In this document: piece by piece, positions 48,419 to 64,000 of the stretch
Numbering within the stretch: the stretch's first letter is position 1
Layout of the letters: the number at the start of each line of letters is the position of its first letter
The notes under the pieces: generated by a model
Databases searched by the model: none
What the model was told of the DNA's origin: nothing
Seen by the model: the letters and a program-made list of their open reading frames with translations, nothing else
Made by a program: the position numbers and the translations under genes
DNA from: Candidatus Nezhaarchaeales archaeon
GTDB lineage: Archaea > Thermoproteota > Methanomethylicia > Nezhaarchaeales > WYZ-LMO8
DNA length: 64,000 nucleotides
Direction: 5' to 3'
Assembly (NCBI GenBank): GCA_038887515.1
Contig: JAWAKK010000001.1
Span: forward strand, 352,001 to 416,000

Positions 48419-48649
48419 AGGAATCACTAGCTGGATAGATTATCCAGCCAACTCATATAAAACTTACCATCAACGTAATTACTGTTGGGAAGAGATGTCT
48501 TAAAGCAAGATGTTGGCTTCTCTGTTTATGAAGTCGTGACCGCACTTAGCCTATATTAAGGTTAGATGGTCAACTTACTTAGCCATTTAAGGACGAGGTC
48601 TAGAGTGAAGTTTAAATTGTTGGTTAGCTTCACCTATCCTTAAGGCTGG

Positions 48650-49333
48650 ATGGGTTATCCAACCATGGATCAACATCACGATCCTGATGACATTCAAGCT
48701 TCGAGGGCACTTCTATCCATGAGCATCAATAAGGTTAGAGAGCTTATTGGAGATTACTTAAGAAGTTTGCCAGCAAGCCATGCGAGAATCGTTGAGCGAG
48801 TCGTGCATGCTACTGCGGATCCAGAGTTTGCTAAACTAGTAGTTATAAGTAATGGAGCTGTCGAAAGTGGGATCAAAGCCATAAGGGCTGGCGCAAAGGT
48901 CGTGACCGACGTTAAGATGGTTAAAGCCGGGTTGAGAGAAGTAGGGCTTAGAAGGTTTGGAGGAAGAGTTGAGTGCTACGTGGATGATGAAAGAGCCATT
49001 AAGGTAGCTCGAGAAGAAGGAATAACTAGAACTGCAGCGGCAATGCGAGTCGCCGTCGAGATGGGGTTAAACGGAGCGATAGTCCTGATCGGGATATCTC
49101 CCAGTGCAACACTTGAGCTGGTTTCAGCTATTAAGAGAGGAGAAGCAAAGCCAGCTCTGATAGTTGCAACACCAGTTGGTTTCATAGGGGCTAGAGAGTC
49201 TAAAGAGGAGGTCATGAAGCTACCAATCCCCTACATAGTCGTAACAGGTTCAAAGGGTGGTAGCCCCGTAGCTGTAGCAATATTCAATGCGCTATTAACG
49301 TTAGCAGAAGAGGGTATGGAGGGCTTCACTTGA
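48650..49333 (+). CDS. cbiC: Cobalt-precorrin-8 methylmutase
   Basis: RVVHATAD, TDVKMV, TRTAAAM, PVGFIGARESK, KGGSPVA. Confidence 0.92.
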   Translation: MGYPTMDQHHDPDDIQASRALLSMSINKVRELIGDYLRSLPASHARIVERVVHATADPEFAKLVVISNGAVESGIKAIRAGAKVVTDVKMVKAGLREVGLRRFGGRVECYVDDERAIKVAREEGITRTAAAMRVAVEMGLNGAIVLIGISPSATLELVSAIKRGEAKPALIVATPVGFIGARESKEEVMKLPIPYIVVTGSKGGSPVAVAIFNALLTLAEEGMEGFT

Positions 49334-50418
49334 AGTTTCTAAAGTACGGGATTTCGACAGGTGCATGTGCAGCTGCTGCAGCTAAAGCTGCTGCTCTAGC
49401 CTTGATGGGGGTCAAGACTGATAAAGTCAGCATTCCAACACCTATTGGACTACGACTTGAAGTACCTGTTGAAGGGTGTCGAAGAATCGACGATGAGAGG
49501 GCAGTGGCTTGGGTGGTAAAGGATCCTGGAGATGACGTTGACGTAACTAGGGGGCTTAAAATACATGCTACTGTTAGGCTTACTAGAGATGGAGAGATCG
49601 TCATAAAAGGTGGAGAAGGCATCGGAGTAGTCACCAAGCCTGGATTACCAGTCCCCGTAGGAGAGGCGGCTATAAACCCCGTGCCCAGAATGATGATCAA
49701 ACAAGCTCTTCAAGAAGTACTGCCTCCAGGCATTGGCGCCGAGGTCTTGATAGAGGTCCCCGGCGGTGATGAGGTAGCAAAGAGGACCCTCAACCCAAAG
49801 CTTGGCATCATTGGAGGAATATCGATTCTAGGCACCACCGGAATCGTGAAACCACACTCTACTTCAGCATATAAGCGTTCGCTCTCAGTTCAAGTAGACG
49901 TAGCTTTGGCTAATGGGCATGATAGAATAGTCATAGTTCCTGGGAACGTTGGTGCGAGGGTTGCCAGACAGCTCCTCAAAATCCCAGATGAGGCTATAGT
50001 GCAAGCAGGCGACTTCATCGGCTACATGCTTCGTAAAGCAGTAGAGAAGGGGGTGAAAGAAATCCTGCTAGTTGGACATGCAGGTAAGCTTGTGAAGATC
50101 GCAGCAGGCATCTTCAATACTCATCATAAAGTTGCTGATGCTAGAATGGAGGTCATTGCAGCATATGCTGCTGCAGCAGGAGCTGATAATCATCTAGTTA
50201 AGAGAATCTTAGAAGCTAACACAACGGAGGAGGCTATTAAGCTCCTTCAACTTCATGGAATCCTTAAGCAAACCTTCAACATGATTGCTGATAGAGCCAG
50301 GTCTAGGTGCATTGACCTAATCGATGGAAGGGCAAACGTAGGCATCATAATAGTGTCGCTTGAAGGTGAGGTTTTAGGAGTTAGTGGCGTTGATAGGTGG
50401 TTGTCAGCACATGGCTAA
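49330..50418 (+). CDS. cbiD: Cobalt-precorrin-5B C1-methyltransferase
   Basis: GISTGACAAAAA, KDPGDDVDVT, AINPVPR, TLNPKLGIIGGISILGTTGIV, GKLVK. Confidence 0.95.
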   Translation: MKFLKYGISTGACAAAAAKAAALALMGVKTDKVSIPTPIGLRLEVPVEGCRRIDDERAVAWVVKDPGDDVDVTRGLKIHATVRLTRDGEIVIKGGEGIGVVTKPGLPVPVGEAAINPVPRMMIKQALQEVLPPGIGAEVLIEVPGGDEVAKRTLNPKLGIIGGISILGTTGIVKPHSTSAYKRSLSVQVDVALANGHDRIVIVPGNVGARVARQLLKIPDEAIVQAGDFIGYMLRKAVEKGVKEILLVGHAGKLVKIAAGIFNTHHKVADARMEVIAAYAAAAGADNHLVKRILEANTTEEAIKLLQLHGILKQTFNMIADRARSRCIDLIDGRANVGIIIVSLEGEVLGVSGVDRWLSAHG

Positions 50419-51091
50419 GATCTACATTGTCGGCGCTGGTCCAGGAGATCCTGACTACGTGACTCCAATTGCCAGGAAGATGGTTAGGCAGGCGGAGTTG
50501 GTAATAGGCTCAGAGAGAGCAGTTAAGCTCTTCAATAACGACGTAAGAGGAGAGGTCATCATTCTCGATTCGAGGAATTTTAGGGAGGTAATGGTTTACG
50601 CTGTAGAACGAGCAAGAAGTGGAGCAAACGTAGTAATGGTATCCACAGGAGATCCTGGCTTCGCTGGTCTACTTGGAACATTCATAAAGAGTTTTGGAAC
50701 AAAATTGGACGTGGAGGTTGACGTCATCCCTGGAGTAAGCGTCATTCAAGTATGCGCTGCTAAACTCAAGATCTGTTGGGATGATGCTGTCCTAATTAGT
50801 CTTCATGAGGGCGCAACCGAAGAAAAGAGGAGGAGACTGGCTGGAGCTGTTAAGTCGGGTAAGACGGTAATCCTCTTGCCAAACACTAGGTCTTTCACTG
50901 TCAGGGATGTCGTGAAGTACCTCTTGAGCGAGGGAGTAGACGAGGAGACAATCGCGTACGTGTGCGAGGACTTAACTCTTAGTAGTGAGAGGATCGTTAA
51001 AGCCACTTTAAGAGAATTAATGTCCTACGAGGGTAGCTCTCTATGCGTTATGGTGATCACTCCAAGGAGGGGTAATTGTGTGGAGCTATAA
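50411..51091 (+). CDS. cbiE: Cobalt-precorrin-7 C5-methyltransferase
   Basis: IVGAGPGDPDY, STGDPGFAG, IPGVS, SLH; start taken at ATG 50411. Confidence 0.9.
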   Translation: MAKIYIVGAGPGDPDYVTPIARKMVRQAELVIGSERAVKLFNNDVRGEVIILDSRNFREVMVYAVERARSGANVVMVSTGDPGFAGLLGTFIKSFGTKLDVEVDVIPGVSVIQVCAAKLKICWDDAVLISLHEGATEEKRRRLAGAVKSGKTVILLPNTRSFTVRDVVKYLLSEGVDEETIAYVCEDLTLSSERIVKATLRELMSYEGSSLCVMVITPRRGNCVEL

Positions 51092-51671
51092 AACACCTGG
51101 AATACCGGATGAGCTCTTCATAACTAGCGATAAGGTTCCTGGACCAACCAAAGAAGAGGTAAGAGTTGTGACCATATCGAAGGCAAGGCTTAAGGAGGGA
51201 TGTCGCGTTGCTGATGTTGGTTGTGGTGTTGGAAGCATAACTGTCGAAGCTGCATTAATTGTTGGCTCTACGGGGAAAGTATACGCTATTGATAAAGATG
51301 AAGAGGCTATTAGAATCACGAAGCTGAACGTGGCTAAATTTGGCGTTCAAGATCGCGTTCAGGTAATACTTGGGAAAGCTTCTAAGGTTCTTGAGCTAAT
51401 CCCGGAGGTCGATAGCATAATAATAGGAGGTGGAAGGCCCTTATCCAAGGTCCTTGAAGCTGCTGTTAAGAGACTGAAGTTTGGTGGACGCATCGTAATC
51501 AATGCGGTCACTGTTGAAACGGCGAGTAGAGCTATCAAGATGCTCAAGAAGATGAAGTTCGGTGAGCTGGAAGTAGTTAACGTATCTATCGCTAAAGGCA
51601 AGCTTACCAACGCGGGAACTATCATGCTGGCTAGGAACCCTGTTTTCGTAATATCTGCGTCAAAATCTTGA
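51078..51671 (+). CDS. cbiT: Cobalt-precorrin-6B C15-methyltransferase
   Basis: PGIPDELF, PTKEEVR, DVGCGVGSITVE, ARNPVF. Confidence 0.92.
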   Translation: MWSYKTPGIPDELFITSDKVPGPTKEEVRVVTISKARLKEGCRVADVGCGVGSITVEAALIVGSTGKVYAIDKDEEAIRITKLNVAKFGVQDRVQVILGKASKVLELIPEVDSIIIGGGRPLSKVLEAAVKRLKFGGRIVINAVTVETASRAIKMLKKMKFGELEVVNVSIAKGKLTNAGTIMLARNPVFVISASKS

Positions 51672-51681
51672 GGGAGCTATA

Positions 51682-52200
51682 TTGCTAGGCAAGTTATATG
51701 GTGTGGGTGTTGGTCCAGGCGACCCTGACTTACTGACTTTGAAGGCTGTAAAGGTTTTGGGTGATGTGGACGTAATATTCGCTCCAAAACCCAGCACTGA
51801 CAAGCCTAGCTTAGCACTGACGATTGTTAAGCCAATGCTTAGAGACCATCAGGAAGTGGTAGAACTTGTCTACCCGATGACTAAGGAAAGAGAGGTCTTA
51901 GAAGCTTGTTGGGAAAAGAATGCTGACCTGATAATCTCAAAGCTCATGACAGGAAAGAACGCAGCCTTCATAACGTTAGGAGACCCCATGCTCTACAGCA
52001 CCTTCATATATACTTGCAGGAAGATTGTAGCTAAAGCTCCTGACGTGGAGATAGAGATAGTCCCAGGAGTTACATCGATAACGGAATGTGCTGCAATCTC
52101 AAGGACGTCCATAGCAGAAGGAGATGAAGTAGTGGTGATAATCCCTTCACTGAGTGATCGCGAAAAAATTAGAGGTCTAGCGAAGAAGCTACATCAATAA
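51682..52200 (+). pseudogene. cbiL: Cobalt-precorrin-2 C20-methyltransferase, 3'-truncated
   Basis: YGVGVGPGDPDLLTLKA, TLGDPMLYSTF, VPGVTS; ends at 172 aa where sufB-like sequence begins. Confidence 0.8.
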
Positions 52201-52341: not shown

Positions 52342-52453
52342 GAATTTAATCAATAATTTATAGAAAGTCCACATACAAAACTGAAAAATTAAAACATAGT
52401 TGAAAAGATGAATGAAGTACGTCTTGGGGTGTTAGTGAAGTACATGCCATTGC

Positions 52454-53383
52454 TTGCTGGTGTCGTGTATGAGGTTAAGGTATCGCCTGCAGAAGAGTCG
52501 GGAAGCGCTCATAATCTCTGTTTCGCTAAGCTCTCTAGGCGCAATTGTTGAAGGTGTGGCACTAACATTTTATGGGAGCATTATTCTCGCCACTGACTTT
52601 TTTCACTGGGTCTTGGATACAATAGTTGAGGTTATGTTCCTATTTTCGATTTATTACGCTAGTAGAGTAGGAAAGAGGTTTCCTTGGAGTATAATAGCGC
52701 TTGAGTTCTTGACAAGCATAATAGTGATGATCGTTGTCTTAGGCTTCTATGGCTTCTACTTCTTCAATTACGTTAACAGCCTCATGCAACAGTATAGTGT
52801 ATCAACGGTATCGCCGCTGGCTGCAATAGCTACAGCTATTGGAGGAATAATTACTTTAACAGTGTTCGTGCTTCAAAGAAGGAACTACAGGAAATATTCG
52901 TTAGAGATCTTAAGAATTGATAGTAACCATGCACTGATAGATACCGCATCGTCTTTTTTCGCTACCTTTGGAATAATCCTTACAGCTTGGTTGGGAGACC
53001 CAACGATAGAGATTTTTGCTACACTAATCATCATGATGTTCATAATTCATAGCATCTTTGAGATATTTAAAGATACCTTTAAGGTATTATCGGGAAGCAA
53101 TTTAGATCACGAGATAACGGATAGAGTGAGAAGAGCCATCGAAGAGAGATTGTTCGATGCTAAATTAAAGAACGTGGAGGCTAGGAAGGTCGGATCGTTT
53201 TACATAGTGTCTACCGATATATTTTTGGATCCAAACACCACCATTTCAAAAGCACATTCTTTACGCAGGAAGATCGTAAATTTAGTTAAAGAAGTCTCCG
53301 ACCTCATTTACCATGTCGACGTTAAGTTCTATCCCTCGCTCGAATACAGGAGAGTTTTGAAAAAGCAAAAGAGGAGGAGTTAA
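52454..53383 (+). CDS. Cation diffusion facilitator family transporter
   Basis: TM2 HWVLD and TM5 HALID metal sites, ARKVG..HVDV C-terminal domain. Confidence 0.85.
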   Translation: MLVSCMRLRYRLQKSREALIISVSLSSLGAIVEGVALTFYGSIILATDFFHWVLDTIVEVMFLFSIYYASRVGKRFPWSIIALEFLTSIIVMIVVLGFYGFYFFNYVNSLMQQYSVSTVSPLAAIATAIGGIITLTVFVLQRRNYRKYSLEILRIDSNHALIDTASSFFATFGIILTAWLGDPTIEIFATLIIMMFIIHSIFEIFKDTFKVLSGSNLDHEITDRVRRAIEERLFDAKLKNVEARKVGSFYIVSTDIFLDPNTTISKAHSLRRKIVNLVKEVSDLIYHVDVKFYPSLEYRRVLKKQKRRS

Positions 53384-53464
53384 AGGTTTAAGTTTAAACC
53401 CCAATTATACAGACTAAGGTATGTGGACGCTGTTGCGATGAAACCATTTGCGACTATTGATTGG

Positions 53465-54715
53465 CTACTCCTCTCTTCGCATAGGCTCTTTGATCAACGT
53501 TCCAATCATTACCATTAACGGTATGCTAAGGGTCATTGCCAAGTAGAAAGGCGCCTTGGGCGATACATGTTCGTAGAGAGAGCCTCCTGCAAGATTTCCA
53601 AGAGCCATAAATATGACGCTAAGGAAGTTGGAAAGGGCATTAATCTTTCCTCTCTCGTCCCTAGGTGTGAGATCTGCGATAAGTGAGCTCGCCCCTGCGT
53701 ACATCATTACTTGGCCAGCTCCTACAAGTATCAAGGAGATTACTACTAAGAACGTGCTTCCATTTACGAAGAACCATATAGAGAAAGTAAAGAGTACGTA
53801 GGCTACTATCAAGGATATCTTTCTGCTGGCCTTGTCGATTAACTTTCCTATCGGTATAGAGAAGACGACTGTAGTAACCGGTACAATTGTTAAGAGAAGC
53901 CCCCATAGAGTCTCGTTTATCAATAATTCTCTCACCGCGTATACCGGGAGAAATGGTGTTATTGCGGAGAAACCCGATTGTCCGATAGCAACCGCTAAAA
54001 CGAGGTATAAGAGAGACCTCGACGCTTTCTTGTACGCTGTTAAACATTCCCTAACCGCAATCGGGTAGTTCCTCCAGAGATTCGATACGCTAGGCTTCTC
54101 GGAACCCCTAAAAGTCTCCTTTAAGTAGAACAATCTGAGGAAAGCCGCGGCGAGAAAGAAGGTGACCACTAACCCGTAACCCATCCTCATCCCCATCATC
54201 AACCCAAAGGTTCCACATAAATAAGCGGCGATTATAGGGCCTGGAGTCGTCGAGGCGTTACCTATTAGCGAAACTATACCGAAGCCCATGCCCCTCTTTT
54301 CGGGCGGTAGAGAGTCGGCCAGCATAGCCATGAGGGCTGGCTGATACATAGAGTTAAATACGGCCATTAGTACACTGCCCACTAAGATGAAGTGCCAGGA
54401 GGGGGCTAGGGCGAAGAATAGGTAACTTAAAGCCACCCCGAATGTCATGGTACATATTATCCACTTTCTCCCAAACTTATCGGCAATATAGCCTCCGGGA
54501 AACTGCATTGAAGCTAAAGCAATGAAGTGACAAAACCCTATTAGCCCTACTATAGTCTCGCTAGCCCCTAGACCGATTACGTATAGAGCATAGTAGACGG
54601 CTGGTATCTCCATCGCAAAATCCATGAGTAGCCAACTTACAACCAAGACGGCATAGTTTCCTTTAACGAAAGCTAGGTCTTCTCTGATATGCTGAATAAA
54701 CCGTGCAACCATCAA
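53465..54715 (-). CDS. MFS transporter
   Basis: GGYIADKFGRK, ADSLPPEKRG, GKLIDK, ADLTPRDERGK. Confidence 0.9.
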   Translation of the reverse strand: MMVARFIQHIREDLAFVKGNYAVLVVSWLLMDFAMEIPAVYYALYVIGLGASETIVGLIGFCHFIALASMQFPGGYIADKFGRKWIICTMTFGVALSYLFFALAPSWHFILVGSVLMAVFNSMYQPALMAMLADSLPPEKRGMGFGIVSLIGNASTTPGPIIAAYLCGTFGLMMGMRMGYGLVVTFFLAAAFLRLFYLKETFRGSEKPSVSNLWRNYPIAVRECLTAYKKASRSLLYLVLAVAIGQSGFSAITPFLPVYAVRELLINETLWGLLLTIVPVTTVVFSIPIGKLIDKASRKISLIVAYVLFTFSIWFFVNGSTFLVVISLILVGAGQVMMYAGASSLIADLTPRDERGKINALSNFLSVIFMALGNLAGGSLYEHVSPKAPFYLAMTLSIPLMVMIGTLIKEPMRREE

Positions 54716-54863
54716 CGGCTCGCCTCAAACACTCGCCGGAATAAACGCTAATTACTACTCAACGCTGAGGCTTCTACCTATAACTATAGATTTGCTTTAA
54801 ACTTTATGTCTAATAGGCCTTCAAAATGATTGGTTTAGCAGGTCTCTATCGACCTTTTCATGT

Positions 54864-55925
54864 TTAATTAATATCCTTCGATTTTCTTTGTATCATGTAT
54901 TGATACTTTACTTCTCCATCCATTATATAGTACACTAAACATTCACCATCTTCGGCTTTTAGTATCGGCTTTGTTAAGACTTCCGCTATTTTTACGAGGT
55001 CCCCAAGACTCTTCACGTCTATTGTTGTCCACGTCTCGGGAGGTAATCTCGTTGCCTCAATTATCAAGTCTTTATATTCTTCAGCCACTTTTTCGGTCTT
55101 TGCTATTTCGCTAGACTCTTTCTTGGCCTTCCTTGAACCCTTAAAGTATAGGGCTGTCGATACGACTAATCCTGAAATCATAACTGCGGTCACAGCATAA
55201 GACGCATCTTTCTGTAGTTCGACGTCGGGGTACCCTACTTCAATAGTTTCCCTAATTTCTTTATTTTCAGTCTGGTTTAGGCCCTCCAGCGATATGTAGC
55301 TACCCTTATCGGTTGTCGATTTAAAAACTACGGTCAGCTGAGGGGTAAACTTTTCCCCTACTTCTCTCCCAGCAAGAACGGCTTCTATGTTTATGTTTGG
55401 CATCACGTAGATACTATAGGAGGAGGAGTACATTCCCAACTCTTTGTCTATCGCATGAGCGATATTCCTTATTGCTGGACAGTTTATTTCAAGTGTAAAG
55501 TTTAGCGACCCCCTAAAATTCAATAACTCCACAAGTTCTGTCTCCTGCAGGTACTTTACCCATCTACCTGGCGATTCTATTTTTGCAGCCACACTCTCCA
55601 TTGTTACGTTAAGCTTCTCTGGACTTGGGTTTGAAGCGAATACGTACGTAAATGTTACGTTAATCCTGTTCGTTAGAGATGTATACAAGATCCCTTCGTC
55701 GGGTCTCAATACGGTCTTATTATAAATGACGTTCGGCTTCAACTCTGCTACGCAATCGTAAAATGCTTTATGCATATATGAAGCTAAGGTTACCGTTCGC
55801 CTCTCAAACGTTGGCCTCTGTTGTACATAGTAAAGGTTTACGAGTGAGAAAACAGTTAGCGCAATGAAAGAAATGACCAATATTTTCTTAATTAACTCCT
55901 TGTCTTTCTTCATGCCTTTCATCAC
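54864..55925 (-). CDS. DUF5305-like membrane protein with large extracellular domain
   Basis: N-terminal TM, PNVIY motif, second TM, cytoplasmic tail YKDLI..SLGDLVKIAE..KPIL..YYIMDG..Y. Confidence 0.7.
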   Translation of the reverse strand: MMKGMKKDKELIKKILVISFIALTVFSLVNLYYVQQRPTFERRTVTLASYMHKAFYDCVAELKPNVIYNKTVLRPDEGILYTSLTNRINVTFTYVFASNPSPEKLNVTMESVAAKIESPGRWVKYLQETELVELLNFRGSLNFTLEINCPAIRNIAHAIDKELGMYSSSYSIYVMPNINIEAVLAGREVGEKFTPQLTVVFKSTTDKGSYISLEGLNQTENKEIRETIEVGYPDVELQKDASYAVTAVMISGLVVSTALYFKGSRKAKKESSEIAKTEKVAEEYKDLIIEATRLPPETWTTIDVKSLGDLVKIAEVLTKPILKAEDGECLVYYIMDGEVKYQYMIQRKSKDIN

Positions 55926-55948
55926 TAGCCGTTTTCCTTATAATATTA

Positions 55949-56057
55949 ATTTGACACATATTTTAGCCTTTACCATGTTTTTCCTTACGGCCATAAACGG
56001 ATTAATTCTTCTTTCTCGCAATAAGCGGGGTTGCCCCACGTGGGCTATATTGCCCCC
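55949..56057 (-). promoter_or_regulatory. Conserved upstream element, copy A (DUF5305-like gene)
   Basis: Plus-strand boxes ATTTGACACATATT, CCTTACGGC..AACGG, GGGGTTGCCCCAC, CCCCC in the same order as 61639-61709. Confidence 0.55.
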
Positions 56058-56214
56058 TTTAAATTTTTTATTTACTATAATTCTTCATTATTTGCTGCGT
56101 TCTCAACGCCTTTCTATATCTATTAGATCTTTAAATGTGAGGAAATGACTACACGTAGTCGCCCAACTACAAAACTTAGAAAGTTCCGCTTCTGATAGAC
56201 GTTCTCGACAAACC

Positions 56215-57990
56215 ATGAGGCCCCCAAGCGTTAGGCTTGTGGGCGCTTTATTGATCGCATTACCTCTAATCATAGCTATTTCTTCTATGTGCATGATGGC
56301 TTCTCAGCCCACCGTCCAATTATTGCTAAGGTTTAGGCCGGGCGTTCCCGAGGACTTTAAGAAGGAGTTCCTAGAGTCTCACGGTCTACAGACGGTAGAC
56401 TACATAAAGCAAATAGATGTTTTCGTTGTTTCAGCTCCAGTACAAAGACTTCCATCAATTAAATCGGCATTGGCTGAGAGCCCTATAATAGACTTTGTTG
56501 AAGTAGACTCGATTATAGCCTACTCGCAGGTGCCCAACGATCCATATTATCCAGTCCAATGGTATTTGGCTAAAATTAATTGTCCTAGCGCTTGGGATAT
56601 TTCGACTGGAAGAAGCAACATTATAATAGCAGTGATCGACAGCGGGGTTGACCCCACACACCCTGATTTAGCCGGTAAACTCATTCAAGGATGGAACTTC
56701 TACGATAACAATGACGATACCTCCGACGCCTTTGGACACGGTACAAGGGTTGCAGGTATAATAGCTGCAGTAACTAATAACAATGTAGGCATAGCCGGCG
56801 TGACCTGGAACTGTCTGATACTACCTATTAAGGTCACAAACCCAAGCGGTTACACTACCACCTCGCTATTAAGCAAGGGTCTAGTTTACGCCGCCGATAG
56901 AGGTGCCAAGGTCGCAGTGATAAGTTATCAAATATTTGGTGGCTCCTCTATTTCGAGTGCGGCTAAGTACTTTGTGGACAAGGGAGGAGTAGTTGTAGCA
57001 GCAGCAGGCAACACCGGGAAGTACGAGAGCTATAACGATAATCCATACATAATCTCCGTCAGCGCTACGACTAGTAGCGATACGTTAGCAAGTTACTCGT
57101 CCTATGGACCGTACGTGGACCTTTCAGCTCCAGGTTCAGGCATATACACTACGACTAGAGGTGGCGGTTACGGTGCAGTTTCAGGAACATCGTTCTCGGC
57201 TCCCATTGTTGCTGGGGTTGCTGCATTGATGCTCTCAATTAATCCCTCTCTAACACCATCGCAAATCGAGCAAGTACTAGAGTCCACCGCCGTCGACTTA
57301 GGTGCGCCCGGCTACGACGTCTATTATGGTTGGGGAAGAATCGACGCTTATGCTGCCCTCAAAGCGGCTTTAGAGATGACGAGCAGAAGTACCAGCCCTC
57401 CAACAATAATAGACACTACCCCACCAAGTGTTAGGATAGTCTATCCAGCTAGTGGAGAGGTTGTTTCAGGCTCGGTGACAGTCAAGGTTGAAGCGAGCGA
57501 CAACATCGGAGTAGCTAAGGTAGAGCTATACAAGAATGGCAATTTACTCGCTGTAGATTATGATGCGCCCTACGAGTTCTACTGGGATAGTGCGGCAGAT
57601 CCAAACGGAGTGTACCTCTTAGTAGCTAGAGCCTACGACTCTTACGGTAACGTTGGTGAGTCGAACGCAATCGCGGTCAACGTCGTTAACAGTCTTGTAA
57701 GCAACCCTTCCGACACTAATCCTCCAACAGTTAAAATAGTTAAGCCCTTGAACAGACAGGTGGTGTCAAAAGCTGTAGATATAGTTGTTTCAGCATCGGA
57801 CGATTCAGGGATAGGGAGGATCGAGATTTACGTGAATGGCAACTTAATAGCTACAATTAATGCTGAACCGTACACCTATAATTGGAATACAAGGTCTGTC
57901 AAAAATGGTTGGCATACTATAACTGCTAAAGTCTACGATATCTACGACAATTACGCCGAGACTTCGATAAGCGTTTACGTGTACAATTAA
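56215..57990 (+). CDS. Secreted S8 subtilase (thermitase-like) with two C-terminal Ig-like domains
   Basis: Signal peptide and propeptide; VIDSG, GHGTRVAG, AAAGN, SGTSFSAP triad; DTTPPSV and DTNPPTV Big-type repeats. Confidence 0.92.
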   Translation: MRPPSVRLVGALLIALPLIIAISSMCMMASQPTVQLLLRFRPGVPEDFKKEFLESHGLQTVDYIKQIDVFVVSAPVQRLPSIKSALAESPIIDFVEVDSIIAYSQVPNDPYYPVQWYLAKINCPSAWDISTGRSNIIIAVIDSGVDPTHPDLAGKLIQGWNFYDNNDDTSDAFGHGTRVAGIIAAVTNNNVGIAGVTWNCLILPIKVTNPSGYTTTSLLSKGLVYAADRGAKVAVISYQIFGGSSISSAAKYFVDKGGVVVAAAGNTGKYESYNDNPYIISVSATTSSDTLASYSSYGPYVDLSAPGSGIYTTTRGGGYGAVSGTSFSAPIVAGVAALMLSINPSLTPSQIEQVLESTAVDLGAPGYDVYYGWGRIDAYAALKAALEMTSRSTSPPTIIDTTPPSVRIVYPASGEVVSGSVTVKVEASDNIGVAKVELYKNGNLLAVDYDAPYEFYWDSAADPNGVYLLVARAYDSYGNVGESNAIAVNVVNSLVSNPSDTNPPTVKIVKPLNRQVVSKAVDIVVSASDDSGIGRIEIYVNGNLIATINAEPYTYNWNTRSVKNGWHTITAKVYDIYDNYAETSISVYVYN

Positions 57991-58048
57991 AGGTGGTTGG
58001 CAAGGTAGCAAAGTAGCCAGCGAAATCCACCAACACCCTAACATTTTA

Positions 58049-58618
58049 TTAGGGCGCGCTGTATCGCAATGTTACATAAATTATCATGTAATCTCTCTCC
58101 TCTTGTCCGCATTCCATTCTAATCCACACGATTGCTTTCTCTCCTGGATTCAGAACCACCATTCCAAAGTGATTTAAACCGTCGAGCGGCGGATCGCCAA
58201 CCTCATATTCTCCACAGCCATCTCCACTATACGGACCATAAAAGTACGTTTGCACAGTATTGCCGTCATAGTCTGCGCCGTTTACCCATACCATAGGGCT
58301 CTCTAGAACTGAAGGCACAGTTCCATCGTTTCGCACTAGAAGCCCCACCCAGATGTACCATCCGCTCGACACGTTGGTGCATTCAATTATAAGCGTCTGT
58401 CCGCCACCTATCACGTTACTAACTATTGTCCCATCGTATCCCATTGAGCTGACTATCTTGCTTAAACAAATAGTCTGTCTAAACACTGCAGTTTCAACTC
58501 TTCCAACGACGTATAGGTTGTCCTGCAACAATGTGTGGGTCAGGCCGACTACAGCTAAAGCTACTATTGGGATTAGCGCCATCACGAACATTCTATTAAG
58601 AAAACTGCTCCTCCTCAC
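58049..58618 (-). CDS. SipW-type substrate, TasA-like minor subunit
   Basis: Hydrophobic signal then GLTHTLLQDNLYVVGRVETA, paralogous to 60044 and 61114 N-termini; VRNDGTVP and LNPGE motifs. Confidence 0.7.
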   Translation of the reverse strand: MRRSSFLNRMFVMALIPIVALAVVGLTHTLLQDNLYVVGRVETAVFRQTICLSKIVSSMGYDGTIVSNVIGGGQTLIIECTNVSSGWYIWVGLLVRNDGTVPSVLESPMVWVNGADYDGNTVQTYFYGPYSGDGCGEYEVGDPPLDGLNHFGMVVLNPGEKAIVWIRMECGQEERDYMIIYVTLRYSAP

Positions 58619-58627
58619 TTCACCTCT

Positions 58628-59956
58628 TCACCTCCTAACGATTTTTCTAGAGCCATTCACGTGCTTGTACGCGTATATTATGGATGCGTTAATAACAGCA
58701 GTTAATAGTACGTATGCGATCAATGGGTTTTCAGTCAGATATACTGCAACGGTGCCAACCATGTTCTTTAAGAATATGCTGGCCCAGCCTATCTTCGGCA
58801 CTGCGAAGACAAGCTTCCATAATTTTTGGCTAGGTATTACAACTATTGGTTCGTCGGGTACGTTGTTAGCATCACCCTTAGTCACTATTACTATTACGCC
58901 TCCAGACCTGCTTACTTCCACGACCCTATGTGCTATTGGGGAATCGATCCCGCTTCTCAAGTATTGTATTACATCGCCCACGTGAACCTTTTCTGCCGAT
59001 GTTTGTACGGTTACGATTATGTCGCCTACATCAAGCATTGGCCTCATACTTCCACTTACGACTACGCTAGCTTGATACCCCAGTAGCCCACTCGTACCCC
59101 AGACCATTGCTACCATAATCAAAGCCGCAACAAGACCTACCAGCTCTACGGACCTTGAAGCCTTACGCCCCCTCAATTTTATTTGCTTGATGTCCTTCTT
59201 GTTCATGATTCCTACAGCGATTAACTTCATGGGCGAGAGAGCTTCATTTATCATTATCACTCCAATAGCAGGTGTAAGCGTAGTTATCAACGATTCTACC
59301 CCCCACGGTGGTTTTGGTAGTATAGGTGCTAACCAATTGTATGCTTCTATGGTCCATACGTAGGTAATCGATGCTAGTGGCCCGCCTATTAGAGCTAGGT
59401 AAGTTGACAATAGACTCTGTGCGCCGGCCGGTAGTACTTTCGAAGCTAAAAACTTTACTGAATCAGCTAAGCTATTCTGGGCAATAAAGCTGAAAGCTGA
59501 AAGTTTAAGGAACATAAAAAATACTGTTACCAGGATTAGTCCAGTATACTTTCTACTTCTGGGTACAGACTTGACTACGTATGCTCTTGCAGTCTCCTGA
59601 GCTAAGATCGGAGCTGTAAAGTATACTATGTTTGTAATCATTCCTATTAGCGTGAACGAGTAGGGACTTCTCCCGAACTCCGTAAACAATGCTACAAGGT
59701 TTAAGCTTACGATTTGCAGTAAAGCCGTTAAAAACGCTATTATAATTACGAATCTATGGGTCTCCAACTTAAACCGTCTTAGACCTCCAATAAGATAAAG
59801 CGAGATTAAAAACGATAACGTCCACAATAGTGATGGAATCACGTAAGCCAATAATCCAGTAAAATTAAAGGAGTTCAAAACGACATATATACCGATAATT
59901 AAGGTTAGCGTTGAGACCTGCCCTTTGTATTGGGCAAACGTGTCTTTCAAGCGCAT
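58628..59956 (-). CDS. sipW: Signal peptidase I (SipW/ER-type S26B) fused to N-terminal multi-TM domain
   Basis: VVSGSMRP (Ser), GDII, IAHRVV (His), TKGDAN..D, VPKIG; about 260 aa of TM helices upstream. Confidence 0.85.
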   Translation of the reverse strand: MRLKDTFAQYKGQVSTLTLIIGIYVVLNSFNFTGLLAYVIPSLLWTLSFLISLYLIGGLRRFKLETHRFVIIIAFLTALLQIVSLNLVALFTEFGRSPYSFTLIGMITNIVYFTAPILAQETARAYVVKSVPRSRKYTGLILVTVFFMFLKLSAFSFIAQNSLADSVKFLASKVLPAGAQSLLSTYLALIGGPLASITYVWTIEAYNWLAPILPKPPWGVESLITTLTPAIGVIMINEALSPMKLIAVGIMNKKDIKQIKLRGRKASRSVELVGLVAALIMVAMVWGTSGLLGYQASVVVSGSMRPMLDVGDIIVTVQTSAEKVHVGDVIQYLRSGIDSPIAHRVVEVSRSGGVIVIVTKGDANNVPDEPIVVIPSQKLWKLVFAVPKIGWASIFLKNMVGTVAVYLTENPLIAYVLLTAVINASIIYAYKHVNGSRKIVRR

Positions 59957-59987
59957 CCATGGCGACCTCCAACATTATCGTTAGCAT

Positions 59988-60037
59988 AAAAAAAGAGGGG
60001 TTTATTCGGACTCTAACTTAACGTAAGGCTTAGTTAG
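59988..60037 (-). terminator. Candidate terminator after the 347-aa subunit gene
   Basis: Imperfect CTAAC..GTTAG inverted repeat followed on the minus strand by CCCCTCTTTTTTT. Confidence 0.45.
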
Positions 60038-60043
60038 CTGTCT

Positions 60044-61087
60044 CTACGGTGTGTACGTGTACTTTACTTCAACTACCGCTAAATCGTGGTAAGTGTATGC
60101 GCCCCATCCGTCGGTTGCCTGGAAGCGTACCTTTAAGTCGTTAATTTCAGCAACTGTATCTACACCGAGCGCCTTTAAGTCTATAACCTCGGTACGATCT
60201 TGTCCAGGCGCAGGTAGGGGCGACAAGTTAATCGTACCCATCAACGTCGGCCCAACGTACACTCTTATCCTTGCATTATCTACGTGTGATGGTCTGTTCC
60301 ACTCGAAGTACAATACAACACTGTCTATCGATGCTCCAGCAGGTAGGGTTACCTTTTCAAACCATATATCTAGGTACTCAAACTCACTATAGCACTCACT
60401 CCACGTACTCTTAGTGCGATACCTATCATCATCACTTTGTTTAAGCCTGTTTAGATCTTGGCTCTTTAGCTGGTACCCAAAGTCTGTAGTGTCACAGCCT
60501 TTATTCGGATTCAAACGCACTGTCTCCGTTATCGCTTGAGCTGGCGGTACATACTCATTCCACTGTATCAATTCCATCTCTAGAGCAAACGGGTAGGATG
60601 CATCTTGGTCGGCACACTGCTCAACATGCACCTTAATTACGACGGTTATTTCATCTCCTTGATGTAATTGTCTCCCTACAGGGGCATCGTGCGTAATCTG
60701 TAACCAGACAGGTCCATCATTTGCTCCATATCCGCTCGACGGTGTCCAACCAATAGTGGTTATAACGGTTTCATTAACTATTGCTGGGACCGTTCCAGTA
60801 TATCTATACACGGCAGTTATTGTTGCGTTGTAGCATGGATACGTATTGTCTACGACTACAATAAGTGTATCTGTCCCCAAGCCGTCGAATATAACTCCTC
60901 CAACATCCTTATCGTAACCAGGATCTACACCTTCATCGTTAGATACCGCAGATACCCACATTCCTTCAACAGTACCAGTTTCAATAGTACCACTTACCAA
61001 GACGTTCGTGCTCCATAACGTGTACACTAAACCTATCAATAACATGACAGCTACGAGGGCTGAAAGTACATACGCAAGTTTTTTCAC
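60044..61087 (-). CDS. SipW-type substrate: TasA-like domain plus C-terminal beta-sandwich (adhesin-like) domain
   Basis: GLVYTLWSTNVLVSGTIETGTV; first about 180 aa colinear with 61114..61623 down to QWNE; extra about 160 aa domain. Confidence 0.75.
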   Translation of the reverse strand: MKKLAYVLSALVAVMLLIGLVYTLWSTNVLVSGTIETGTVEGMWVSAVSNDEGVDPGYDKDVGGVIFDGLGTDTLIVVVDNTYPCYNATITAVYRYTGTVPAIVNETVITTIGWTPSSGYGANDGPVWLQITHDAPVGRQLHQGDEITVVIKVHVEQCADQDASYPFALEMELIQWNEYVPPAQAITETVRLNPNKGCDTTDFGYQLKSQDLNRLKQSDDDRYRTKSTWSECYSEFEYLDIWFEKVTLPAGASIDSVVLYFEWNRPSHVDNARIRVYVGPTLMGTINLSPLPAPGQDRTEVIDLKALGVDTVAEINDLKVRFQATDGWGAYTYHDLAVVEVKYTYTP

Positions 61088-61113
61088 AGCAGATACCCCG
61101 CTAATTGCTTAAA

Positions 61114-61623
61114 CTACTCTGGTGCTTGGAATTCGTTCCACTGTACGAGCATTATATCAATCGTGAACGTGTATGTCGCGCCCTGTAGAGCATCATTTGT
61201 TAAGTGGACAGTTAACAGACAGTTGACCTCTTGCCCTGGCTCTATTTGGTCTCCCACAGCTATCCCGCTAACCACGACCCATACAGACGCGTTACCGTTA
61301 ATAGCTATGCTTTGAACTTTGACAGGAATTGTCCCAGTATTCTTTACCTTAAACTCTTGGAAGTAGTCTATGCTCGGATAGGCGTTTGTAATCGTAACCA
61401 CCAACGTATTTCCATCAACAAGAGCAGATATTTCGCTAACGTCTTTTCCAGGAACATCATCATCTCCATCGTAGCTGGCGCCTGCTATTATTTCTGCAGA
61501 GACCGTTCCAGTATTTATAGTACCGCTTACGTAGAGGTTCGTGGACCACAACGCGTAGCTTACTCCTAAGGCCAGCATAACTACGAGTAGTGATGCAACA
61601 ATACCGACAATCTTGGTCTTCAC
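61114..61623 (-). CDS. SipW-type substrate, TasA/camelysin/AbpA-like probable major fibre subunit
   Basis: MKTK-hydrophobic-GVSYA|LWSTNLYVSGTINTGTV SipW-class signal; NAYP, VKNTGTIPV, IEPGQ, QGATYTFTI motifs; GGAGGTGG RBS; first in operon. Confidence 0.8.
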   Translation of the reverse strand: MKTKIVGIVASLLVVMLALGVSYALWSTNLYVSGTINTGTVSAEIIAGASYDGDDDVPGKDVSEISALVDGNTLVVTITNAYPSIDYFQEFKVKNTGTIPVKVQSIAINGNASVWVVVSGIAVGDQIEPGQEVNCLLTVHLTNDALQGATYTFTIDIMLVQWNEFQAPE

Positions 61624-61638
61624 TCAAGCCACCTCCAT

Positions 61639-61745
61639 ATTTCATACATATTCTTGGGATCTATCATCGCCTTACGGCTTTAACGGGGGCCACCCCACAT
61701 TAGTCCCCCGGGAAGTACGTTTCATACGTACTCCGTAGGTAGGAG
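61639..61745 (-). promoter_or_regulatory. Structured 5' leader / conserved upstream element, copy B
   Basis: Stems GGAGUACGU/ACGUACUUC, CGGGGG/CCCCCG, GCC-GUAA-GGC and UACGG/CCGUA; TTTAAA box near 61764-61769; shares boxes with 55949-56057. Confidence 0.6.
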
Positions 61746-61940
61746 TTATCATGGAAAATGGTTTTTAAACATGTGAAACTTTCAGTAAGAATGAGCTGGT
61801 AGTTATCTAGGGGTATGTATCTGCTCGACCACACTTAATGCAGTTCAATCTACATGTAGAAGCATAGCGTAAATCAAAGGCCTACTTTCTATTATAAGCT
61901 TAAATCCAAAGGGCTTTAGGCCTTAAGGAGTTTTAGGTAC

Positions 61941-62177
61941 TTACTCTTCTACTAGCAGTTTAAGAAAAAGTCTTCCCTTATCGGTTGTTCGATAAATTTT
62001 TGGGCCGCTCGGTACTTCAACGATTTCTAGCAACTCTTTGCCGACGAGGTACTGGAGGTACGCTTGAAAGCGTTTAAAGTTTAAATTAGATTTATAGATG
62101 ATATGGGTTATTTTCTCGCCCTTAAGGCATAACCTAAGTATCTCCATAATTATATTAACTTGGTTTCTACGCATCAC
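61941..62177 (-). CDS. Small winged-helix regulator (HTH_45/DUF4364-like)
   Basis: RRNQVNIIMEIL..THIIYKSNLN..YLQYL..YRTTDKG. Confidence 0.8.
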   Translation of the reverse strand: MMRRNQVNIIMEILRLCLKGEKITHIIYKSNLNFKRFQAYLQYLVGKELLEIVEVPSGPKIYRTTDKGRLFLKLLVEE

Positions 62178-62368
62178 GAATCTACCATCTTCGTATTAAA
62201 ACTTTAATTAACCAGTGTTGCGCGTCTAGTAGTAGACGTTTACGTCCTTTGCTTTTAAAAGTATGTGAACTTTTTCAAGGTGAGGGGTATTAATCTACTC
62301 CAAGATATGGTCTATTAATTAAGGAACTGATAGTCCATAACGTCTATAAGTATCATCAATGATATCTC

Positions 62369-62614
62369 ATGTGTAGGCATTTTAAAAGAGGCGGCTCGAT
62401 TGAGAGGATGAAGAAAAACATTAGGCGTTTTCTTAGAGCACTGGAAGACGGGGAGTTTCACAACCTCGAGGACCTATCTAGGAAATTGAATATGCCGCTT
62501 GAATTATTGGTAGCCTTCTCAAACTTCTTGAAGAAATGGGACTTCGCGGATTTCGATGAGGAGGGTCGAAGGGTAAGACTTAAGCCTGACTTTCTTGAAC
62601 TCCCCCGAGACTAA
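62369..62614 (+). CDS. Small winged-helix protein
   Basis: LEDGEFHNLEDLSRKLNM..FLKKWDF..RRVRL; start may be ATG at 62408. Confidence 0.6.
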   Translation: MCRHFKRGGSIERMKKNIRRFLRALEDGEFHNLEDLSRKLNMPLELLVAFSNFLKKWDFADFDEEGRRVRLKPDFLELPRD

Positions 62615-62903
62615 GGTGTCTCTCGAGCTTCTTAAGAGCTTGGAAAAGTTTTTCTTCAGCTTCTTTGAGTTTCATAAATTCTTCAACGAAGTCCAGACCA
62701 TTCTTGGTAATCGCTATCTTTGAAGAACTACCATTTAAGGAAACGAGCTTCCTAGAAAGAAGGAAGGATAAGTACTTATTAGTCCTATTTAAGTTCAAGT
62801 TGACCTTGCGCATAATCATGGTCTTACTTTGTTTTCCTTCCTTAAGTAGAAGGAGGATGTCTGATAGGATGTCCAAGCCACTCCTTCTCTTCCTTTTAAT
62901 CAT
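62580..62903 (-). CDS. Small winged-helix regulator (HTH_45/DUF4364-like)
   Basis: RRSGLDILSDIL..KTMIMRKVNLN..YLSFL..ITKNG, C-terminal coiled coil. Confidence 0.8.
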   Translation of the reverse strand: MIKRKRRSGLDILSDILLLLKEGKQSKTMIMRKVNLNLNRTNKYLSFLLSRKLVSLNGSSSKIAITKNGLDFVEEFMKLKEAEEKLFQALKKLERHLSLGGVQESQA

Positions 62904-62957
62904 GGCTCTAGCAAGTACGATGACTTATATCCCCCTTAATAGATCTTCCCCCAACGC

Positions 62958-63008
62958 AAAAAGGGCAGCGGGCCCTACTAGGCCGCCACCCTACAACCGG
63001 CCAGGTTA
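62958..63008 (-). ncRNA. Candidate small RNA or attenuator: GC-rich hairpin followed by U5
   Basis: Minus strand GGGUGGCGG-CCUAGUAGG-GC-CCGCUGCCC-UUUUU; two G-U pairs work only on this strand; TTATATA box near 63034-63041. Confidence 0.4.
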
Positions 63009-63516
63009 GTTAACTAGTAATACTTCAGTTAAGTATATAATTGTTTCTATAAAATTCTTCTTATTTAAGCGAAGATTCTTTTAATCAATAAATGCAATGG
63101 TGGTTTTTATTTAATTTAAGCGTTGAAAATAAACGATATAAATACGTTAAAAATGTGCAAGCGTAAAAGTTTATGATTATAAAAGGGCTTCAACCATGTC
63201 ACGTTTACTGACATACCTTTTCTTTAGTTGAAGCGATTTCGTGAAGTCAAAAAAGCTTGTTTCATATTTAGGGAGACAAATTTGGATTTGACGTAAAGGA
63301 TAGCAGTTGTCAATATATGGATTCTGCTATCCTGAAGTTACGATTTTCGATGTAGTCTTCAAGAACTTTAAGGCAAGGTAAAGGCGTTTTGACGTTGAAA
63401 TGTTTTAGAAGTCAACTTCTTAGCTTGAAAGTTCCTTAAATTTATTTGGAGCCAATAACTATTTTAAATTATTAAGGATACATGTGCTAACTAGTTTTTT
63501 AGGAGTCGAATGGGGT

Positions 63517-64000
63517 TTGAAGGAGAATAATTGCGGCTCTTCTCTAATTCATGAATTTAAGGTTTACGTTGGTACTTCTGGTTGGCTTTACGATTGGAAC
63601 GTCGATGGAAGCTTTGACTGGTATGTGAGCTACTCTGAACTTAACGCTGTTGAGCTAAATGCCTCTTTCTACAGATTCCCATTTCCGAGCCAAGTGTCTT
63701 CTTGGGCTAAGAAGGGAAGTAAGCTTAAGTGGGCTATTAAGGTTAACAGACTCATAACTCACGTCAAGAGACTGAAAGAGGACTCTCTAAACATTTGGAT
63801 GAGGTTTAGGACTCTCTTGAAGCCAATGGATCACCTAGTAGACTTCTATTTGTTCCAGCTCCCACCAAACTTCAAGAGGACTAGCGAGAACGTTAGGAGG
63901 TTAAAGACCTACGCTGAGGAGACTGACTTGGGCTCTAGGTTTGCAGTAGAATTTAGAGACGTTTCTTGGTTTAACGATGAGACCGTCGATGTATGTGAAA
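63517..64000 (+). CDS. DUF72 family protein (runs off window end; start uncertain)
   Basis: VYVGTSGWLYDWN, LNAVELNASFYRFP, WAIKVNRLITH, LFQLPP, AVEFRD..WF. Confidence 0.9.
   Translation, partial: MKENNCGSSLIHEFKVYVGTSGWLYDWNVDGSFDWYVSYSELNAVELNASFYRFPFPSQVSSWAKKGSKLKWAIKVNRLITHVKRLKEDSLNIWMRFRTLLKPMDHLVDFYLFQLPPNFKRTSENVRRLKTYAEETDLGSRFAVEFRDVSWFNDETVDVCE

Follow-up and report, generated by a model that had tools for sequence, protein, structure and literature searches.

The closest described counterparts of the locus studied here are the abpX loci, which a January 2026 preprint by Sleutel and colleagues (10.64898/2026.01.04.697558) describes in its main text as encoding major and minor subunits, a tip protein, a signal peptidase I with ten transmembrane segments, a DUF5305 protein and transcription factors. 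According to the same text, AbpX polymerises by donor-strand complementation, in which W2, L6, L8, A10 and I12 of one protomer are buried in the groove of the next and W2 acts as a clamp, and three calcium ions are held by E4 together with D18, D46, D48, E52 and E142. We analysed a nine-gene block in a stretch of 64,000 nucleotides (hereafter the window; contig JAWAKK010000001.1, positions 352,001 to 416,000, assembly GCA_038887515.1) from a Candidatus Nezhaarchaeales archaeon. With a probability of about 0.8, we read this block as an abpX-type locus of the TasA superfamily whose products form an extracellular fibre by donor-strand complementation. Since this type of locus is described in the preprint, the locus here is another example of a known system, and not the uncharacterised one that an earlier reading of the window from its letters (the sequence-only reading) had taken it for.

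The locus shares with the abpX loci described in the preprint's main text, including that of Zestosphaera tikiterensis, a donor strand that opens at a tryptophan, a low isoelectric point (pI) of the subunits, a minor subunit, a tip protein, a multi-transmembrane peptidase, a DUF5305 protein and transcription factors, and the distribution over Thermoproteota, Chloroflexota and Bacillota is common to both. It differs from them in an inserted S8 subtilase gene and in a tip protein with a module resembling a carbohydrate-binding module (CBM), and from AbpX itself in that position 4 and the equivalent of D18 are Thr and Ser, the calcium site being probably missing. A word search of the main text found no mention of Nezhaarchaeales or Bathyarchaeia, although the supplements (Table S3, Figs S7 and S14-S16, Data S1) may list the lineage, record variants at position 4 or treat tip folds. 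The subtilase insert, the spread of the CBM-like module, the missing acidic residue and the decay of the locus in genus relatives were not met in the preprint's abstract or its sections 6 and 9.

Other described systems share part of this plan. The tapA-sipW-tasA operon of Bacillus subtilis likewise joins a donor-strand jelly-roll subunit, an accessory subunit and a dedicated Ser-His peptidase in one operon (PMC9245690). In contrast, the proteins here do not reach the TasA and SipW models (scores given below), the peptidase is extended by a large polytopic N-terminal domain and accompanied by a DUF5305 protein, and no TapA homologue was detected. The taf loci of haloarchaeal Tafi pili resemble the locus in having a regulator (TafB), a peptidase (TafD), a DUF5305 protein (TafG), pilins, tip or anchor candidates and strand donation (PMC12337348). 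Tafi pilins, however, are placed in a separate superfamily cluster (10.64898/2026.01.04.697558) and many are described with twin-arginine translocation (Tat) signals (PMC12337348), whereas the subunits here are of Sec type and no TafF-like anchor was identified. The AbpA/AbpB bundling pili of Pyrobaculum calidifontis also belong to the donor-strand fibres of the TasA superfamily and have a larger second subunit, proposed to be an initiator or adhesin (PMC9245690), but AbpA falls in a more distant cluster (10.64898/2026.01.04.697558), and a profile of our subunit family gave no match to a PDB entry of AbpA at E <= 1. The sequence-only reading had also named AbpA as a fibre whose N-terminal strand is exposed by SipW cleavage; this does not agree with the description of the archaeal bundling pilus (ABP) operon in PMC9245690, which reports no dedicated signal peptidase gene near it.

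The kinship with AbpX is carried by the 169-amino-acid (aa) protein of the block. In a phmmer search of the PDB, this protein matched 9sj2 (AbpX of Pyrodictium abyssi) at E 6.2e-5, with query residues 26-140 aligned to residues 2-119 of the chain and the alignment opening at the Trp, just past the predicted cleavage site. The family profile, built from 50 homologues, matched 9sj2 at E 1.3e-17 and 9rhp, a self-complemented crystal construct of AbpX, at E 2.6e-12. The predicted parts of the protein are a signal peptide (1-24), a cleavage site SYA/LW (the slash marks the cut), a donor strand (25-42) and a beta-sandwich (43-161), and the predicted mature protein begins LWSTNLYVSGTI. Its mature residues W2, L6, V8, G10 and I12 are in register with W2, L6, L8, A10 and I12 of AbpX. 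Across the 50 homologues, the Trp at residue 26 of the precursor is invariant, the residue at -1 is small in every case (A in 47, G in 2, S in 1) and L30 is kept in 42. The AlphaFold2 (AF2) model, with a predicted local distance difference test (pLDDT) score of 92.3, shows a helix at 2-24, residues 25-42 without regular structure and an eight-strand sandwich at 43-161; AbpX monomer predictions likewise show an unstructured N-terminal extension in the preprint's main text. The mature pI values are 4.05, 4.35 and 4.26 for the 169-, 347- and 189-aa paralogues of the block, and Asp plus Glu make up 11.7%, 13.9% and 11.2% of them, compared with 14.6% of AbpX. Judged by sequence, the 169-aa protein is a homologue of a fibre subunit of solved structure, and the earlier proposal of a donor-strand fibre of the TasA superfamily with this protein as major subunit is upheld by the AbpX homology and by the donor strand in register. 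As side observations, the closest named homologues are proteins of metagenome-assembled genomes labelled Candidatus Nezhaarchaeales, Nitrososphaerota and Bathyarchaeia (65-70% identity), and the sequencing run that contains the locus is labelled hot springs.

Several results weigh against this reading. A Foldseek search of the PDB with the 169-aa model returned nothing at E <= 0.001, the Sulfolobus thread 7pnb standing at rank 36 (E 0.1), and a wide VIA-align search reached a best Z of 8.0 with generic Ig/PapD/MSP-like sandwiches. AbpX, TasA and AbpA were not among the rows listed by either program, a negative that depends on whether the libraries include 9sj2 and 9rhp. Because the structure searches gave generic sandwiches, the family assignment rests on sequence and not on fold. 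The Pfam model Peptidase_M73 (PF12389, TasA/camelysin) gave E 0.014 and 15.7 bits, under its gathering threshold of 22.5, and matched 3 of the 50 family members at E <= 0.01, while PDB entries of B. subtilis TasA scored E 0.83 and 0.95 with the family profile. Two hallmarks of the family are named in the preprint's main text, and here the aromatic residue at position 2 is present whereas the acidic residue at position 4 is absent from the 169- and 347-aa proteins. In the window's copy of the 189-aa protein, loss of the donor-strand Trp may mean relaxed selection, and the locus is degraded in two genus relatives (G005 and G001), so its function in this genome is not guaranteed. The SipW-dependent signal models TIGR04088 and TIGR04090 match none of the three paralogues at E <= 0.1; across the family these models match 8 of 50 (best E 0.001) and 7 of 50 members, respectively.

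Generic beta-sandwiches, with Z at most 8.0, are also what the fold search would return if the paralogues were Ig-like monomers, secreted or on the surface, with only a signal-peptide type in common, the peptidase being a specialised secretion enzyme. We consider this very improbable given the significant homology to a solved fibre protein, which includes the donor strand, the hydrophobic register and Trp of the strand kept across 50 sequences, and the position of the N-terminal 18 residues outside the fold in the model. Another possibility is that the subunits are type IV pilin-like (Ups-like) and cut by a prepilin peptidase, as the NCBIfam model UpsA matches residues 71-155 of the 169-aa protein at E 1.3e-6 (28.6 bits) and matches 10 of the 50 family members. 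That score is, however, far under the cut-off of 130 bits and covers the sandwich domain only, the families of the type IV pilus ATPase, platform protein and prepilin peptidase have no match among the nine open reading frames (ORFs) of the block, and the adjacent enzyme is a signal peptidase I; moreover, the mature AbpX chain, as given in the preprint's main text, has its first residue directly before the Trp and past the hydrophobic stretch. On the UpsA score, the missing pilus families and the adjacent signal peptidase I, we rejected the pilin interpretation, which we regard as hardly credible.

The gene neighbourhood provides the second line of support for the abpX-type reading. We compared 20 genome loci with 52 metagenome loci. 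Of the genome loci, 7 come from the class to which the source organism belongs, and scanning GTDB species genomes gave the other 13 (Bathyarchaeia, Thermoprotei, Aeropyrum, Anaerolineae, Dehalococcoidia and Ammonifex). Many of the metagenome loci are short and some are near-duplicates (L094/L095, L088/L089, L062/L072); a metagenome scan with a single protein query had found no relative. The long peptidase stood beside two to five subunit paralogues in 19 of the 20 genome loci, the exception ending right after the subunit, and beside subunits in 33 of the 52 metagenome loci, including 19 of the 21 with a length of 4.5 kb or more. Among the metagenome loci, 50 of 52 contained a protein with its best match to the 169-aa subunit and 12 of 52 one whose best-match group was the 189-aa subunit. 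A DUF5305 gene follows the subunit and peptidase genes in 12 of the 20 genome loci and 11 of the 52 metagenome loci. L059, L062, L072, L074 and L080 share the arrangement subunit, subunit, peptidase, 189-like subunit, DUF5305; L075 has the same order up to the 189-like subunit, where the locus ends; and L056 repeats the right side of the window's block from the flanking ORF through both winged helix-turn-helix (wHTH) genes, the small ORF between them (orf81) and the subunits to the peptidase. This co-occurrence, which the sequence-only reading had expected, is far beyond chance. The core consists of the subunits, the peptidase, the 189-like subunit and DUF5305, often joined by a pair of the 78-aa wHTH gene (wHTH78) and orf81, and the distribution agrees with the description of abpX loci in the preprint.

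The 347-aa protein combines a subunit with an additional module. Its residues 1-185 are a paralogue of the 169-aa protein (38% identity) with a predicted cleavage site VYT/LW, and a phmmer search of the PDB with the whole protein gave nothing significant (best E 0.14). An exhaustive HMMER search with the module, residues 186-347, found 149 cluster representatives at E <= 0.001; these proteins are 106 to 2565 aa long and carry the module at their N-terminus, at their C-terminus or as tandem copies, and the 2565-aa protein (P0062) is matched in 18 stretches. Nine of these representatives were scanned for domains: four pair the module with Peptidase_M73 (TasA-like) domains, and the other partners are VWA, SpaA-like, Ig-like, dockerin, InlB-repeat and CBM96 domains. 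For the module, the copies of Pfam-A and PHROGs that we scanned contain no family; in PHROGs nothing scored below E 0.26 for the module, for the small 81-aa ORF of the block or for the 189-aa protein. In a feature search of the Atlas, the nearest module clusters were unnamed and mostly viral or phage (scores 0.95 and 0.93). The AF2 model of the module (pLDDT 97.1, predicted template modelling score, pTM, 0.91) matched the BcsB carbohydrate-binding domain (E 2.1e-5), a CBM for chondroitin sulfate (E 7e-4) and CBM15 (E 2.8e-3) in Foldseek. With VIA-align, the same model matched a phage phi812 baseplate protein (Z 11.3), CBM8 (10.3) and CBM15 (9.4), followed at lower scores by SGBP-B, CBM32, CBM4 and CBM22; a large share of the 40 chains at Z >= 8 are CBMs or other glycan-binding modules. 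The module profile matched the C-terminal part of mannanase 1wky at E 0.0078.

These models suggest a glycan-binding tip or cross-linker as the most economical reading of the 347-aa protein, with the caveat that it is the fold that points to carbohydrate binding. The earlier suggestion of an adhesin-bearing subunit is supported to the extent that the extra domain is modelled as a CBM-like jelly-roll. The full-length tip form is restricted to close relatives (58% identity in L054, 74% in L056 and 70% over the module in the representative P0055), and the second subunit of other loci is about 170-230 aa long.

The 189-aa protein belongs to a distinct AbpX-like orthologous group with the motifs YFYGPY and W..W.G, and its gene lies directly downstream of the peptidase gene in most loci; L094, L095 and L097 instead have it on the opposite strand and upstream of the subunit genes. 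The conserved minor subunit that the sequence-only reading had proposed is thereby confirmed as an orthologous group found mostly directly 3' of the peptidase gene. The donor-strand Trp is present in 12 of 13 aligned members of the group, and the window's copy alone has Leu, with Thr at -1 and a predicted cleavage THT/LL. We considered whether the 189-aa protein could be an uncleaved membrane anchor and ruled this out, as the Trp is kept in 12 of the 13 members, nearly all members have A, S or G at -1 and the 347-aa protein also has Thr at -1. The N-terminus of the window's copy reads MRRSSFLN, which we take to be slightly twin-arginine-like; its orthologues have basic N-termini without that pattern, and we therefore read the signal as Sec-type.

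The peptidase of the locus passed the TIGR02228 model (80.8 bits, cut-off 51.85) but stayed under the cut-off of the SipW model NF046067 (67.9 bits against 190), so that it is a SipW-like enzyme and not a SipW equivalog. From its N-terminus, it consists of a polytopic membrane domain (residues 1 to about 265), a transmembrane segment ahead of the catalytic domain, the catalytic domain itself with Ser303 and His343, and a C-terminal transmembrane segment. Outside the catalytic domain, hydropathy analysis gave 7 peaks of at least 1.6 and 3 of 1.35-1.56, a crude method that agrees with about ten transmembrane segments and does not give an exact count. When 27 homologues from archaea and bacteria were aligned, S303, M304, H343, R344, D362 and D368 were invariant in the catalytic domain, within an SGSM serine motif, an HR histidine motif and a GDANN aspartate motif. 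The N-domain has invariant residues as well (W45, G95, E121, R124, Y199, P211, P214 and W218), E121 and R124 sitting in an 'ELSRAY'-like motif. A second, shorter signal peptidase I is encoded elsewhere in the genome (235-aa open frame), so the copy in the locus is extra and dedicated; together with the TIGR02228 score and the invariant Ser303 and His343, this bears out the dedicated Ser-His signal peptidase of the sequence-only reading. A peptidase search of the genus relatives other than G003, five in number, gave matches to the catalytic part only, residues 260-391, and these correspond to the short housekeeping peptidase.

In structure comparisons, the N-domain of an ESM Atlas model aligns with long signal peptidases, with stand-alone proteins of 221-283 aa and, more weakly, with a CPBP/Rce1-like cluster (template modelling scores 0.67/0.64 over 234 residues, from one predicted-structure row). 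The stand-alone proteins were found in Chloroflexota, Bacillota and archaea. The CPBP family has conserved Glu/His motifs. A CPBP/Rce1-like identity of the N-domain was not adopted, as PF02517 matches none of the 27 homologues at E <= 1 and no His of the N-domain is invariant, and we keep it as a lead only.

The DUF5305 protein matched PF17231 at E 2.2e-21 (76.8 bits, cut-off 29) and has hydrophobic segments at residues 10-35 and 241-261. DUF5305 is proposed as a signal peptidase helper in abpX loci in the main text of 10.64898/2026.01.04.697558, and the account of Tafi pili assigns TafG to assist the peptidase TafD (PMC12337348). By analogy, the protein here is a candidate accessory subunit that probably assists the peptidase. 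Complex predictions of peptidase and DUF5305 protein (alignments A5 and A6) scored 0.00 in both runs, which were made without controls and so speak neither for nor against an interaction. In Chloroflexota-type loci (L026, L027, L029, L031, L033, L069 and L070), the DUF5305 proteins are 531-548 aa long and are matched twice by the window's protein, which suggests an internal duplication of the extracytoplasmic part.

From the kinship of the major subunit and the linkage of the genes, both of which are observed, we predict cleavage, polymerisation and fibre assembly along the following lines. Pre-subunits would be exported by Sec, and the dedicated peptidase, through Ser303 and His343, would cut between a small residue and the residue that precedes the conserved Trp (SYA/LW in the 169-aa, VYT/LW in the 347-aa and THT/LL in the 189-aa protein). 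The amphipathic strand set free would enter the open groove in the beta-sandwich of the next subunit, giving a polymer that has no covalent links and would yet be very stable. The 169-aa protein would be the bulk subunit; the 347-aa protein would join through the same strand and groove and display its CBM-like jelly-roll, most likely as a glycan-binding tip adhesin; and the 189-aa protein would serve as the conserved minor subunit, whether initiator, terminator or base. The DUF5305 protein would probably assist the peptidase, while the wHTH78/orf81 pair and the 107-aa wHTH protein (wHTH107) would probably regulate transcription.

The clearest departure from AbpX lies in the calcium ligands. 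At mature position 4, the 169- and 347-aa proteins have Thr, and only the 189-aa protein has an acidic residue, Asp. Of the 50 homologues, 19 carry E or D in this column, 20 carry K and 11 carry T, A or Q; the window's protein and its nine closest relatives all have T or A. In the column of D18, 34 of the 50 family members have D or E, whereas the window's clade has S or R. In the pairwise alignment to AbpX, D18 corresponds to S42 and D46 to D69, D48 and E52 fall in gaps, and E142 is outside the aligned part. The calcium site at the interface between strand and groove is thus probably not formed in this clade and, as both the acidic donor-strand residue and the D18 equivalent are lost, assembly here may not be gated by calcium.

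The same residues bear on the form of the product. Instead of a cell-attached pilus, the subunits could make a released, lattice-like matrix, a hydrogel network as formed by AbpX of P. abyssi, in which the 347-aa protein would cross-link the matrix to polysaccharide. According to the preprint's main text, AbpX forms para-crystalline lattices both ex vivo and in vitro; the mature subunits here are acidic like AbpX, and none has an obvious membrane anchor after cleavage. The lattice of AbpX is, however, described there as triggered by calcium, whose ligands E4 and D18 are replaced by Thr and Ser in this locus, and the preprint's authors predict that loci with a tip and a minor subunit yield continuous fibrils. 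We regard a released matrix as possible, if rather unlikely. For the fibre itself, a more speculative extension of the model is that the multi-transmembrane peptidase acts as the assembly machine: pre-subunits would be tethered by their signal peptides with their grooves open, cleavage of the preceding subunit would free its donor strand into the waiting groove, growth would proceed from the base with the polytopic N-domain as platform, and enzymatic gating would replace calcium gating in this clade. This would be analogous to sortase-driven pilus growth, and we consider it unlikely.

The locus has left traces in the genus. The major subunit had no match in six other genomes of the genus (69-95% complete). 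At the syntenic site, G005 has the major facilitator superfamily (MFS) transporter gene, a DUF5305 fragment (residues 195-349, 46% identity) and the right-flank ORF; G001 has the MFS gene, a 46-aa DUF5305 remnant and an intact S8 gene (67% identity, 628-aa frame) adjoined by an unrelated gene; and G006 has the MFS gene, a full DUF5305 gene (54%) and the start of an S8 gene at the contig end. In G009, from another genus, a cation-efflux gene lies directly beside the right-flank ORF. These traces indicate that the genus once had the locus and that it later disappeared or decayed in some members. In G005, DNA identity is 98% to positions 48307-52185 of the window and 69% over the MFS gene (53571-54682), the counterparts lying about 43 kb apart (C2:62412-66294 and C2:18816-19927). 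This suggests a boundary of recent transfer or rearrangement at about 52.2-53.5 kb, just left of the fibre locus.

The S8 subtilase gene stands apart from the core. Its product is a secreted protease (PF00082, E 2.4e-53) with two Big_7 stretches (E 3.9e-38) and the motifs DSGV at 142, HGT at 175 and GTSFS at 324. The sequence-only reading had counted it as a remodelling protease of the system, and a functional role in trimming, maturing or remodelling the fibre or its tip could draw on its location inside the block between the 189-aa and DUF5305 genes, on its secretion with two Ig-like domains and on the position being kept in a close relative. That relative, contig L054 (subunit and S8 protein both 65% identical, gene order as in the window), is nevertheless the only one of the 72 surveyed loci to carry the gene, which is missing from all 20 genome loci and from 51 of the 52 metagenome loci. 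The gene also lies on the opposite strand, and it is intact in G001, where DUF5305 is a remnant and where, in a genome 88% complete, fibre subunits and the dedicated peptidase were not found; this survival without fibre genes argues against the subtilase as a dedicated part. In the main text of 10.64898/2026.01.04.697558, 'subtilisin' has no match and 'protease' occurs three times, for the AbpX signal peptidase and for two laboratory protease-inhibitor reagents. The S8 gene is therefore better described as a lineage-specific insert, probably neither core nor required, and we think a functional role in the system distinctly doubtful. Beside the S8 gene of G001, at the place of the window's 189-aa gene, lies a gene for a proline-rich secreted protein (L044, G001:C236, 2-562) with the stretch DYNGDGIINVID. 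This stretch presumably resembles a dockerin or calcium-binding repeat.

The features of the block are listed in Table 1. Its nine ORFs lie between the MFS transporter gene (53465-54715, minus strand) and an unrelated right-flank ORF (63484 onward, plus strand), and all nine were confirmed at the positions given by the sequence-only reading, whose motifs for the three secreted paralogues, YA/LWSTNLYVSGTINTG, YT/LWSTNVLVSGTIETG and HT/LLQDNLYVVGRVETA, also match letter for letter. The minus strand carries, in order, wHTH107, wHTH78, the 169-aa gene, the 347-aa gene, the peptidase gene, the 189-aa gene and DUF5305; orf81 is on the plus strand between the wHTH genes, and the S8 gene is on the plus strand before DUF5305. 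Gaps inside the run of subunit and peptidase genes are short (26, 87 and 9 nt), while the S8 and 189-aa genes converge across 58 nt, and the S8 and DUF5305 genes diverge across 289 nt. The host genome measures 1.29 Mb in 9 contigs and is 94% complete, and a search of the whole genome found these three copies as its only subunit paralogues. None of the listed records that contain the stretch is registered as RNA. No reads mapped to positions 52400-63999 of the window, flanks included, in metatranscriptome runs X3 and X4 of the same study, of which about 3/100 each was read and in which the organism's presence is not established; run X2 yielded short pieces only.

Table 1. Features of the abpX-type block, with positions in the window.
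Feature	Position	Strand	Basis
DUF5305 membrane protein, 353 aa	54864-55925	-	PF17231
Secreted S8 subtilase with two Big_7 domains, 591 aa	56215-57990	+	PF00082, Big_7
Predicted minor subunit, AbpX-like paralogue, 189 aa	58049-58618	-	26% identity to the 169-aa protein; alignment A8
Dedicated signal peptidase I, 442 aa	58628-59956	-	TIGR02228
Putative tip/adhesin subunit, 347 aa; AbpX-like N-domain and CBM-like C-domain	60044-61087	-	Alignment, AF2 model
C-terminal module of the 347-aa subunit, residues 186-347	60047-60532	-	Jelly-roll model
Predicted major fibre subunit, AbpX-like, 169 aa	61114-61623	-	Homology to PDB 9sj2
wHTH regulator candidate (wHTH78), 78 aa, HTH_45/Sso10a family	61941-62177	-	PF14947, NF053610
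Conserved small ORF (orf81), 81 aa, without family	62369-62614	+	Homologues beside wHTH78
Second wHTH protein (wHTH107), 107 aa, HTH_45	62580-62903	-	PF14947

The three small wHTH genes of the sequence-only reading were recovered in part. Two of them are supported as members of the HTH_45 family, wHTH78 by PF14947 (E 9.2e-19) and by NF053610 (73.4 bits, cut-off 60) and wHTH107 by PF14947 (E 2.6e-17), the latter occurring also in the syntenic contig L056. The third, orf81, had no match in Pfam, NCBIfam or PHROGs, and its designation as wHTH is therefore unproven. Homologues of wHTH78 adjoin subunit genes in 9 of the 52 metagenome loci, and homologues of orf81 stand beside a wHTH78 homologue in 8 of them; 4 of the 20 genome loci have a small wHTH protein with its best match to wHTH78 or wHTH107. 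By this conservation, orf81 is a real conserved gene and a divergent partner of wHTH78. Its 3' end overlaps wHTH107 tail to tail by 35 nt. The closest orthologue of orf81 is 72 aa long and aligns from query residue 12, so translation may begin downstream of the annotated GTG/ATG start, perhaps at Met14.

Several parts of the locus reach beyond this genome. The unnamed CBM-like module, widespread on TasA-like and adhesin proteins, is a candidate for a new family of adhesin domains, and the N-domain of the peptidase, with invariant polar residues of its own, has no assigned role. Counts of the system's components should leave out the neighbouring protease. As a natural variant of AbpX that lacks the calcium-binding residue of the donor strand, the major subunit offers a test case for the generality of calcium gating. 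A biofilm scaffold common to bacteria and archaea is emerging in the donor-strand fibres of the TasA superfamily, and the locus described here carries the AbpX branch into a small-genome, uncultured lineage of thermophilic archaea.

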